From Candidatus Omnitrophota bacterium (lineage in GTDB: Bacteria > Omnitrophota > Gorgyraeia > Pluralincolimonadales > Pluralincolimonadaceae), in NCBI GenBank assembly GCA_003141835.1, contig PLNR01000008.1, forward strand, positions 132,472-196,471: a stretch of 64,000 bases of DNA, in the 5' to 3' direction. Of this stretch, positions 2,636 to 4,883 are shown piece by piece. The position numbers were made by a program, and so were the translations under genes. Within the stretch, counting starts at the first letter, position 1; the number at the start of each line of letters is the position of its first letter. The notes beneath the pieces were generated by a model, which was given only the letters and a program-made list of their open reading frames with translations, did no database searches and was not told the DNA's origin.

Positions 2636-2923
2636 TTACTTGACTATCGCGAGGATGTCGTCAGCGTCGATTATCAGGTATTCCTTATCATCGACCTTGA
2701 CTTCGCTGCCGGAATATTTCCCGAAGATGATTATATCCCCGGCCTTTACGTCCGGCGCGACTACCTTTCCGTTCTCGAGAGTCTTGCCCGAGCCGACTGC
2801 GATGACTTTCGCTTCCTGCGGCTTTTCTTTCGCAGTGTCAGGAATGATTATCCCGCCTCTGGTCTTATCTTCGGCCTTTAGCACCTCGACGATAACTTTA
2901 CCGCCTAACGGTTTCAAGTTCAT
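2636..2923 (-). CDS. groES: co-chaperonin GroES (second, operon-distal copy)
   Basis: 95 aa: [14 protein letters not shown]...[25 protein letters not shown]...ILAIVK. The mobile loop is intact. SD AGGAGG is placed 17 nt after the groEL stop. Confidence 0.9.
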
Positions 2924-2940
2924 GTATCCTCCTTATAGGT

Positions 2941-4575
2941 CTAGTACATTCCCTCGCCATAGCCGCCGTGCGGTGGCATAGGAGGAGTCTTTTCTTTTTC
3001 AGGTATGTCCGTGATCACGCACTCGGTCGTAAGCAGCAAGCCTGCGATAGAAGCAGCGTTCTGCAGGGCTGTCCTCGTGACTTTTGTCGGGTCGATGACT
3101 CCGGACTTGATCATATCAACGTAATCGTTCTGCATGACGTCGTAACCTACTACAGCGTCTTTCTCGTTCTTTACGTGTTCCGCGATGACCGATCCTTCAA
3201 GCCCCGCGTTCTCGACGATATGGCGGATAGGTTCCTCGAGAGCCCTCTTTACTATATCGACGCCTATCTGCTCATCGGCTGAGAGTTTCATCTTATCGAG
3301 CGCCGGGATGCAGCGAAGGAGCGCTACACCGCCGCCGGGAACGATACCTTCCTCGACAGCCGCGCGCGTTGCGTGCATCGCGTCTTCGACGCGCGCCTTC
3401 TTCTCTTTCATCTCGGTCTCGGTTGCCGCGCCTACATTGATGACGGCGACGCCGCCGGAGAGTTTAGCCAATCTTTCCTGCAATTTCTCTTTATCGTAAT
3501 CCGAATCGCTCTTCGATATCTGGGCCTTGATCTGCTCTATCCTGCCCTTGATATCTGAGGTCTTGCCCGCGCCCTCTATGATCGTGGTATTATCTTTATC
3601 GATAGTGACCCTTTTGGCGCGCCCAAGTTCGTTTACGTCGATGTTTTCGAGTTTCTTCCCGAGGTCTTCGGTGATCGCTATCCCGCCGGTCAGGACCGCG
3701 ATATCATCGAGCATCGCCTTTCTCCTGTCGCCGTAACCCGGAGCTTTCACCGCGCAGCACTGGAACGTGCCGCGTATTTTATTGATGACCAATGTTGCGA
3801 GGGCCTCGCCGTCTACTTCCTCGGCGATTATGACCAGAGGCCTGCCGGTCTTTGCTATCTTCTCGAGCAGGGGAAGCATCTCCTTTATATTGGAGATCTT
3901 CTTCTCGTGGATAAGTATGTAAGGATCTTCGAGTGCGGCTTCCATCTTCTCCGCGTCCGTAACGAAATACGGCGAGAGGTAGCCCTGGTCGAACTGCATG
4001 CCTTCTACGACCTTTACCGTCGTCTCGGTCGATTTGGCTTCCTCGACCGTTATGACGCCGTCTTTGCCGACCTTGTCCATCGCTTCGGCTATCTGGTCGC
4101 CGATGGTCGTGTCGTTGTTGGCGGCAATGGAGGCAACCTGCGATATCTCTTTCTTGTCCTTGCCTATGGGTTTGGTTATCTTCTTCAGGTGGGCTACTAC
4201 TTCCTCGACCGCCTTATCGATGCCGCGCTTCAGGGCCATCGGATTCGCTCCGGCGGTGACGTTCTTGAGGCCTTCGCGATAGATCGCTTCAGCCAGGAGT
4301 GTGGCCGTTGTGGTGCCGTCGCCGGCGTTGTCGGAGGTTTTGCTTGCAACCTCTTTTACCATCTCGGCGCCCATGTTCTCAAACGGGTCTTCGAGCTCTA
4401 TCTCTTTGGCGACCGTTACCCCGTCTTTGGTTATCGTGGGTGATCCGAATTTCTTGTCGAGGACTACGTTACGGCCCTTAGGGCCGAGCGTCACAACTAC
4501 CGCTCTTGAAAGCTTTTCTACGCCTGCCAGTATCTTGCGCCTTGCCTCATCGCTGTAAAGCAGCTGCTTTGCCAT
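2941..4575 (-). CDS. groEL: chaperonin GroEL (Cpn60)
   Basis: 544 aa: [70 protein letters not shown]... with a C-terminal GGM-like tail. Confidence 0.97.
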
Positions 4576-4595
4576 TTTCTACCGCCTCCCTTTTA

Positions 4596-4883
4596 TTATT
4601 TGACTATCGCTAAGACTTCCGATTCCCTTAATATTAAAAGATCTTCCCCTTTATAGTTGATCTCGGTGCCGCCGTAACGGCCGTAAAGGACCGTATCCCC
4701 GGCCTTCACTTCCAGTTCCTTAATCTTTCCGTCATCCAGGAGCTTGCCTTTACCAACGGATACTACCTTTCCCTTGGACGGCTTCTCCTGCGCCGTGTCC
4801 GGCAGGATTATCCCGCCCTTTGTCTTCTGTTCCTGATCCAGGGGCTTGACCAAAATCCTGTCACCTAACGGTTGAACCGCCAT
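4596..4883 (-). CDS. groES: co-chaperonin GroES (first, operon-proximal copy)
   Basis: 95 aa: MAVQPLGDRILVKPLDQEQKTKGGIILPDTAQEKPSKGKVVSVG...VLAIVK. SD AAGGAGG lies 7 nt before the ATG. Confidence 0.93.
   Translation of the reverse strand: MAVQPLGDRILVKPLDQEQKTKGGIILPDTAQEKPSKGKVVSVGKGKLLDDGKIKELEVKAGDTVLYGRYGGTEINYKGEDLLILRESEVLAIVK

Follow-up and report, generated by a model that had tools for sequence, protein, structure and literature searches.

A second groES gene downstream of groEL in a conserved three-gene chaperonin locus of the Omnitrophota

The 64-kb stretch of Candidatus Omnitrophota DNA analyzed here (referred to as the window) carries three chaperonin genes on the minus strand, in the order groES1, groEL, groES2. 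The promoter-proximal co-chaperonin gene, groES1 (4883..4596), encodes a protein of 95 aa (ES1), and is preceded by the Shine-Dalgarno sequence AAGGAGGTG. It is followed, after a spacer of 20 nt with a strong Shine-Dalgarno sequence (GGGAGG), by groEL (4575..2941), which encodes 544 aa and is the only chaperonin-60 gene within the window, and then by the distal co-chaperonin gene, groES2 (2923..2636), which also encodes 95 aa (ES2). The spacer between groEL and groES2 (2940..2924) is 17 nt long (ACCTATAAGGAGGATAC), and contains its own Shine-Dalgarno sequence, AAGGAGG, and no terminator. A tblastn search of the whole window recovered no groEL or groES other than these three genes in the 64 kb.

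The predicted expression signals are found at the two ends of the gene cluster. Upstream, on the same strand, is a sigma-70-type promoter (5017..4990; TTGACA-16 nt-TATAAT), which matches the consensus at all 12 of the 12 positions. Just 3' of its -10 box, and 68 nt ahead of the groES1 ATG, lies an inverted repeat of the CIRCE type (controlling inverted repeat of chaperone expression; 4978..4952, minus strand; TTGGCACTC-N9-GAGTGCTAA), which has a single mismatch to TTAGCACTC-N9-GAGTGCTAA in a regular-expression scan, and is presumed to be an HrcA operator. The CIRCE operator is bound by HrcA in many bacteria. Downstream from groES2, an intrinsic terminator (2620..2586, minus strand), formed by a 15-bp stem with seven GC pairs and a T-rich tail, has a folding energy of -25.4 kcal/mol (RNAfold), and no other strong terminator is found on the minus strand of this region. 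No strong promoter or terminator was found between groEL and groES2 of the window, and the two distinct Cpn10-type genes would be included in one predicted transcript. The canonical bicistronic groESL operon has two cistrons and then a terminator, whereas a third cistron precedes the terminator here. An Rfam scan for RNA thermometers or leaders at positions 2200-5400 returned just a sub-threshold snoRNA match, which was considered to be noise. The preliminary description of this locus had proposed a three-gene operon with a second groES at 2923..2636, 17 nt after groEL and with its own AGGAGG, ahead of a shared terminator; the coordinates proved exact, the motif is present within AAGGAGG, and the shared terminator was confirmed.

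The three genes of the window are free of frameshifts and internal stops, and their products are typical of their families. Against a PF00166 cut-off of 21.1 bits, ES1 scores 114.5 bits over profile positions 2-93 of 93, and ES2 116.8 bits over positions 1-93 of 93. In NCBIfam, ES1 exceeds the cut-offs of NF001531 (130.4, cut-off 96) and NF001534 (126, cut-off 120), while ES2 scores 129.5 on the NF001534 equivalog (cut-off 120), and GroEL reaches 861.9 bits on the TIGR02348 equivalog (cut-off 582.1), with residues 2-527 covered. Both GroES are single-domain proteins rather than tandem-fused double Cpn10 forms, and match the Thermus thermophilus Cpn10 structures 1WNR and 4V4O about equally (E ~1e-31), as well as the chains of PDB 7EKQ (E 1e-25 to 1e-34).

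The two co-chaperonins, judged earlier to be roughly half identical, align without gaps at 47% identity and 76% similarity (E = 6e-33). In the GroES of Escherichia coli, residues I25-V26-L27 of the mobile loop bind the apical domain of GroEL, and Y71 faces the cavity. The mobile loop of ES1 is KTKGGIILPDTAQEKP, and that of ES2 is near-identical, with a hydrophobic stretch that reads GGIIL in ES1 and GGIII or GGIIL in ES2. The residues P28-D29-x-A31-x-E33-K34-P35 are invariant in both the ES1 and the ES2 clades, as are the roof residues G44-x-G46...G52 and the cavity-facing Tyr70, so that the retention of the mobile loop by both copies, noted at first sight, extends to the roof loop. Given that both copies are complete GroES proteins with almost identical mobile loops, both should be able to cap the adjacent GroEL.

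The comparison of eight ES1 sequences with 127 ES2 sequences revealed twelve alignment positions at which the residue sets of the two groups do not overlap. Near the N-terminus, these are positions 2 (A/S in ES1, N in ES2), 3 (I/V and L, respectively), 9 (R and K), 11 (L and I), 13 (K and E), and 14 (P/L/H and V/I/R). The central positions are 51 (D in ES1, N/S in ES2) and 55 (K/R and V/I), and the remainder form a run close to the C-terminus, at positions 85 (L and I), 86 (R/K and D/E/N), 87 (E and A/S/Q/F), and 88 (E/S and D). The differences between ES1 and ES2 lie in the subunit body and the roof, and not in the part that docks on GroEL. The reciprocal charge swaps K13 to E13 and R/K86 to D/E86 were considered as complementary contacts between subunits, but this idea was reduced to a hypothesis, as the pattern at position 37 (K or E in ES1, E in ES2) is not clean. 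In E. coli GroES, a single inter-subunit salt bridge has been reported, R37-E76 (PMC6318259).

The arrangement is not restricted to the window. The exact ES2 protein is present on four contigs, and a database search with ES2 recovered at least 120 protein clusters at 74-100% identity, of which those with a named source are metagenome-assembled genomes (MAGs) of the Omnitrophota/Omnitrophica. The genomic context was looked up for 12 ES2 orthologues, together with two from a metagenome scan, and groES2 lies directly 3' of groEL in every context examined, in 13 further Omnitrophota lineages (L082, L086, L090, L093, L094, L173, L176, L179, L181, L183, L184, L185, and L186), across which ES2 is 74-91% identical. 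The full Cpn10-Cpn60-Cpn10 order was found in 12 of these 13 lineages, while L179 is a partial contig that shows just the 3' end of groEL and then groES2. The tripartite layout is seen in independent assemblies from JGI, ENA, NCBI, and Logan, and its repetition in so many of them indicates that it is neither a chance open reading frame (ORF) nor a misassembly. The presence of the same layout in related genomes, suggested as a check on the initial observation, was thus confirmed in 13 lineages for groES2 and in 12 for groES1 as well, and an assembly artefact, which had been named as a possible refutation, is contradicted by the same independent assemblies.

The metagenome scan, based on the GroES2 alignment, contributed new downstream copies in L093, L094, and L100 among the matches listed, and is the less informative for the fact that its peptide patterns also occur in ordinary GroES. 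The L100 locus (67-748 of the short contig Ga0137796_10046431) carries the 3' end of groEL and then an ES2-type groES, whose longest ORF has up to ~30 extra N-terminal residues (including MASATTTRAVPK...), and similar extensions are found in the proteins P0101, P0108, and P0111. These extended forms suggest that the ES2 clade reaches further lineages. In L183 (LJUB01000013.1, Omnitrophica WOR_2 SM23_29), the groEL between the two groES genes (331-1864) is split over two frames, with residues 1-312 and 342-544 recovered by tblastn in different frames and no gene called, which reflects either a sequencing or assembly frameshift or a pseudogene. A further GroES-like protein, P0071 (150 aa, from a 611-nt ENA contig), has an internal partial duplication, in which the N-terminal strand, the mobile loop, and the roof occur twice ahead of an entire C-terminal half, and may represent either a chimera of the assembly or a genuine fused variant.

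The layout is unusual. Among 72 species-representative genomes that were retrieved by GroEL similarity alone and had enough downstream sequence to judge, only two (L008 and L017) have a groES after groEL, and none of 25 usable metagenome loci with a canonical GroES has one. The L008 locus is a more distant tripartite layout, and its downstream GroES, which scores 132.8 on the ES2 profile, 126.8 on the ES1 profile, and 135.3 on the single-copy profile, is of ambiguous clade assignment and was kept out of the strict ES2 set. The L017 locus (3540-7885 of JAHFHF010000007.1, Omnitrophota MAG nzgw332) has coaX, a CIRCE (TTGGCACTC-N9-GAGTGCTAA), and then groEL, groES, and groEL, encoding 552, 96, and 540 aa, respectively, with the second GroEL being 66% identical to that of the window. 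The 460 nt ahead of the first groEL of L017 yielded no groES or groES relic, only noise matches, and this order could be a different outcome of a tandem duplication of groESL.

A number of other Omnitrophota (L002-L005, L009, L010, L013, L022, and L095) share the coaX-groES-groEL-IMPDH synteny and have no groES2. In these syntenic canonical loci, a terminator and the next promoter come immediately after groEL, and no relic of groES2 was detected after groEL in ten of them, the best match (E = 0.09 over 21 aa) being noise. The records L002-L005, L008, and L012 are titled "uncultured Planctomycetales/Planctomycetia bacterium", and have a GroEL 78-80% identical to that of the window and the Omnitrophota coaX-groES-groEL-IMPDH synteny; the taxonomy in these titles is probably imprecise. 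A survey of 4,861 genomes found groES upstream of groEL, with 435 extra groES genes standing alone, and makes no mention of a distal groES within the operon (PMC5406781). No description of the groES-groEL-groES layout was found in the literature searched, full-text search included, and the architecture, which is clean and conserved, is apparently undescribed, although all of its parts are familiar.

The expression signals predicted for the window recur in its relatives. In most lineages, the groEL-groES2 junction measures 3-40 nt, with longer ones in L082 (67 nt) and L185 (114 nt), and in three (L090, L093, and L094) the two genes share a 1-nt stop/start overlap, TGATG. Most of the related tripartite loci that were scanned have a TTGACA...TATAAT site ahead of groES1, and a perfect or near-perfect CIRCE occupies the same place in L082, L086, L093, L094, and L008, with a degenerate one in L173 and L176. 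In the majority of the related loci examined, groES2 is followed by a hairpin equivalent to the terminator of the window. The flanks are also conserved in most tripartite loci, with birA/coaX upstream and an IMPDH-family gene downstream, and the three chaperonin genes are still together in L185, which has other flanking genes. No second groEL was found within ~3-4 kb of any tripartite locus.

Strong purifying selection acts on both groES genes, and the constraint on the distal copy is close to that on GroEL. In eight lineages with all three genes (28 pairs), the mean pairwise number of nonsynonymous substitutions per site (dN) is 0.220 for groES1, 0.137 for groEL, and 0.144 for groES2, and dN is lower in ES2 than in ES1 in 27 of the 28 pairs. 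Where the synonymous rate (dS) is unsaturated, the dN/dS ratio (omega) is 0.04-0.10 for ES1 and 0.02-0.07 for ES2. The mean pairwise identity over twelve lineages is 71.0% for ES1, 78.3% for ES2, and 82.5% for GroEL, with ES2 exceeding ES1 in 59 of 66 pairs. In addition, 119 of the 120 closest database proteins (at least 120 clusters matched) have a better score for the ES2 profile than for that of ES1. This conservation of ES2, with its low dN and omega, rules out a decaying duplicate, the other refutation envisaged at the outset: omega stays within 0.02-0.10 over the two copies, ES2 is the more conserved of the two, and the loops are kept.

The net charge of the two proteins follows an unusual pattern. 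The canonical single GroES proteins sampled are nearly all acidic, with K+R exceeding D+E in just 5 of 110. Of 13 tripartite lineages, 12 combine a copy with a net charge of zero or above and a negative copy. The basic copy is ES1 in the window, L082, L086, and L184, while ES2 is neutral or basic in L090, L093, L094, L176, L181, L183, L185, and L186, so that the identity of the basic copy flips between subclades. The net charges of ES1 and ES2 are anticorrelated (Pearson r = -0.68, p = 0.011), and remain so in phylogenetic independent contrasts on the GroEL tree (r = -0.70, p = 0.011; six opposite-sign contrasts versus one of the same sign). This anticorrelation hints that the two copies act together, and is the only evidence presented here that bears on the functional consequence of the second groES, proposed at the outset as a change in stoichiometry or an alternative lid. 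If the pattern is real, selection would see the ES1/ES2 pair, and not each protein alone, and mixed lids, or a division of labor between an acidic lid and a basic lid, would fit better than dosage, in what is a suggestive rather than a decisive argument.

These findings are best explained, with good though not complete confidence, by a conserved tricistronic heat-shock operon in a clade of the Omnitrophota, in which two kinds of lid subunit are used together, as either mixed heptamers or alternative lids. A single transcript, ending after groES2, would be driven by one sigma-70 promoter that a CIRCE (HrcA-type) operator overlaps. Translation of groES2 would begin through its own Shine-Dalgarno sequence or else, in some lineages, be coupled to that of groEL by the overlapping stop and start codons. 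Both GroES would cap the adjacent GroEL, and the two kinds of lid would act jointly and non-redundantly, by mixing within the heptamer or by forming two alternative lids. The joint use of two kinds of lid is most likely on account of the existence of two separate orthologous lineages, both under strong selection, with opposite shifts in charge. A number of points weigh against this reading. Co-transcription and HrcA control are predicted from sequence signals, and a hairpin in the 67-nt groEL-groES2 spacer of L082 and L008 could uncouple expression. Some Omnitrophota, such as L017, have two groEL genes, and the inspection for a second groEL covered loci, rather than whole genomes. The charge correlation is drawn from 12-13 lineages on a weakly resolved neighbor-joining (NJ) tree, for a coarse trait, and the mobile loops are so alike that the copies may be interchangeable biochemically, which would fit a role in dosage.

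The dosage explanation holds that the second groES simply raises the GroES:GroEL ratio, favoring, for example, the GroEL14-GroES14 "football", with the two proteins being interchangeable. It is consistent with the location of both copies in one predicted transcript, their near-identical mobile loops, the presence of Tyr70 in both, and their equal scores on the general Cpn10 and GroES models. Interchangeable copies only 1.6 kb apart would, however, be expected to be homogenized or lost, whereas the copies are 47-62% identical, have 12 positions with non-overlapping residues, and form separate, well-conserved groups of orthologues. The slower evolution of ES2 in comparison with ES1 and the anticorrelated charges also tell against dosage, and a change in the ribosome-binding site would be a simpler way to raise the dose, all of which makes this explanation unlikely. 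Less likely still, and clearly improbable, is that groES2 serves a second, orphan groEL elsewhere in the genome, and is merely parked in the operon. Where bacteria have several groEL, orphan copies are common (PMC5406781), the Omnitrophota MAG L017 has groEL-groES-groEL in tandem, and the present inspection was of loci rather than whole genomes. On the other hand, neither the 64-kb window nor the ~3-4 kb around the tripartite loci contains a second groEL, the stop/start overlap in three lineages points to stoichiometric co-production with the adjacent GroEL, and ES2 agrees with ES1 in its mobile loop.

An assembly artefact, or a decaying pseudogene, has nothing in its favor beyond the origin of the window in a metagenome-type assembly, and the probability of either is negligible, given the identical protein on four contigs, the layout in 13 further lineages from independent projects, the intact frame, the full-length Pfam match, and an omega of 0.02-0.07. 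A more specific version of the joint use of two lids, in which ES1 and ES2 are obligate partners, forming mixed heptameric lids or different lids on the two GroEL rings, with selection acting on their combined electrostatics, is speculative, and is considered rather doubtful. If true, it would account for one copy being basic whenever the other is acidic and for the GroEL-like constraint on ES2, and would represent the first co-chaperonin of two subunits in bacteria, comparable on a minimal scale to the Cpn10/Cpn20 system of chloroplasts.

The origin of the two copies was examined in an NJ tree that included 148 GroES sequences. The ES2 copies are monophyletic with 97.5% bootstrap support, while the ES1 copies of the tripartite genomes cluster at 38.5%, nested among the single GroES of other Omnitrophota. 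The ES1 and ES2 clades are not sisters in this tree, in which the deep nodes have 0-11% bootstrap, and the smallest clade joining them comprises 44 of the 148 sequences, with 0% support. The mean identity of ES1 is 62.8% to the single GroES of the Omnitrophota and 55.6% to the GroES of other phyla, against 58.3% and 56.5%, respectively, for ES2. Being closest, among the GroES sampled, to the single upstream GroES of other Omnitrophota, and nested among them, ES1 is the vertical, positional orthologue of the ordinary groES. The ES2 sequences point to either an old paralogue, possibly derived from a tandem operon duplication, or an old acquisition. The ancient duplication that had been suggested for the pair therefore stands in part: the split is old, but duplication is unproven, with ES2 not sister to ES1 and its identities to the two groups (58.3% and 56.5%) nearly equal.

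The alternative history, in which a foreign groES, acquired long ago from another lineage of the same phylum or of a different one, was inserted between groEL and the terminator, is given an appreciable minority share of the probability. It would agree with the separate placement of ES2 in the tree and its near-equidistance, in comparison with the clear proximity of ES1 to the Omnitrophota, and with the lack of an ES2 relic in the syntenic relatives. The composition of groES2 speaks against a foreign origin, as its GC content (0.509) and GC content at third codon positions (GC3, 0.653) equal the values of the neighboring genes, and the poor support for the deep nodes in a tree of 95-aa proteins weakens the argument from topology. 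The NJ topology, itself unsupported, places the ES2 clade and eight other sequences (the downstream copy of L008 and seven GroES from other or unidentified lineages) beside the Omnitrophota cluster, and the groEL-groES-groEL order of L017 is compatible with tandem operon duplication and differential loss. With the methods used here, a protein of 95 residues is compatible with both an old duplication followed by losses and an old horizontal acquisition, a choice that concerns history, not function. An NJ tree of GroEL was tried for the mapping of the gain and loss of groES2. It divides the tripartite lineages among three subclades, with canonical lineages interspersed, and was given up, as its bootstrap support of 3-31% allows no conclusion.

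Some features of GroEL and of the neighboring DNA were also recorded. In most tripartite lineages (tails seen in the window, L082, L086, L090, L094, L173, and L176), the C-terminus of GroEL, encoded at 2941-3000 in the window, is not a clean Gly-Gly-Met repeat, ending, for example, in ...GGYGGGMY, ...GGHNIGMDY, or ...GGPPDMGGY. The GroEL of the syntenic canonical Omnitrophota ends in (GGM)n-Y, e.g., GGMGGMGGMGGMY, and L093 keeps GGGMGGMY. Between the groES2 terminator and the IMPDH-like gene of the window is a GC-rich intergenic stretch of 391 nt (2195-2585, minus strand), which folds at -166.7 kcal/mol (z = -5.7, with 0 of 100 shuffles as good). This stretch has no Rfam match and no repeat within the window, and just the ~60 nt adjoining the IMPDH-like gene are conserved in the relatives, in which the spacer measures 107-250 nt.

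The IMPDH-family protein itself (1034-2194, minus strand; PF00478 in the orthologues) has 386 aa. A typical IMPDH with CBS domains is ~100 aa longer. In the relatives, this gene is followed by a GMP-synthase-type gene and dnaE. Between groES2 and the IMPDH-like gene, there appears to be a hot spot for insertions (L082:4361-7502 and L090:4434-5954), with an insert in L082-L085 that encodes a DUF6998 protein, a 481-aa TPR protein, and an unknown gene, and one in L090 with a 506-aa ORF that has no Pfam match. In L186 (4700-6288 of CAZUZR010000006.1), the GMP synthase was called as two pieces, a 150-aa GATase and a 74-aa GMP_synt_C, and the neighboring DNA polymerase III alpha gene has a product of 1,606 aa with intein and LAGLIDADG domains.

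In many respects, the locus resembles the canonical groES-groEL operon with HrcA/CIRCE of the Bacillus subtilis type, including groES 5' of groEL, the sigma-70 promoter overlapped by a TTAGCACTC-N9-GAGTGCTAA repeat, a single terminator, and typical GroES and GroEL proteins, and differs from it in the third cistron, a divergent second groES, between groEL and the terminator. The co-chaperonins of chloroplasts (Cpn10(1), Cpn10(2), and Cpn20 of Arabidopsis; CPN11, CPN20, and CPN23 of Chlamydomonas, PDB 7EKQ) combine several Cpn10-type subunits in one chaperonin system, in which hetero-oligomeric lids are documented, and one subunit works solely as a hetero-oligomer (PMC4242682, PMC5780408, bioRxiv 10.1101/432013). 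That system is eukaryotic and organellar, with tandem-fused Cpn20/23 and several types of Cpn60 subunit, whereas the Omnitrophota have two single-domain proteins of 95 aa and one GroEL in one bacterial operon. By analogy, the operon may work like the chloroplast hetero-oligomeric family, without being a member of it.

Among bacteria, Bdellovibrio bacteriovorus HD100 has groES-groEL (bd0097 and bd0099) and a second groES homologue, bd3349, and its authors proposed alternative lids for the GroEL chamber (PMC3464611). The bd3349 gene is a distant, stand-alone locus, which encodes 117 aa, 34% identical to E. coli GroES, and has separate regulation, with expression in late predation, whereas the groES2 of the Omnitrophota is canonical in length and sequence, and lies in the same predicted transcript as groEL. 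The multiple groESL operons and orphan groEL genes of rhizobia, cyanobacteria, myxobacteria, and mycobacteria are a further case of paralogous chaperonin parts being kept and diverging after duplication, but there the duplicated unit is groEL or the whole pair, and groEL copies are usually at least as many as groES copies (PMC5406781, Table 1). In the Omnitrophota operon, the ratio of groES to groEL is 2:1 within a single operon. The GroES analogue encoded by phage T4, gp31, has diverged strongly, its mobile loop being longer and no roof loop being known in it, whereas ES2 is a canonical 95-aa GroES with a roof hairpin and a GC3 like that of its neighbors. The likeness lies in the role of gp31, an alternative lid that takes the place of GroES on the GroEL of the host (PMC3464611, PMC6318259). 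The nearest functional parallels are chloroplast Cpn10/Cpn20 and CPN11/20/23, and the second groES of Bdellovibrio, although the Omnitrophota operon belongs to neither, having no fused Cpn20-type subunit and no separate locus.

GroES/GroEL, a textbook folding machine, is normally presented as an operon of two genes, one for the lid and one for the cage. A layout with two lid genes around one cage gene is a clade marker for part of the Omnitrophota, and a warning against the assumption, in annotation pipelines and gene-count surveys, of a single groES for each groEL. The long retention of this arrangement by a lineage represents a natural experiment on the role of the lid beyond the closure of the chamber, and could serve as a simple bacterial model for two-lid chaperonins. 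If the subunits do mix, or form differently charged lids, the electrostatics of the lid would be linked to the folding of client proteins, and the three small genes, which can be expressed in E. coli, would provide a tractable bacterial counterpart to the poorly understood hetero-oligomers of the chloroplast.

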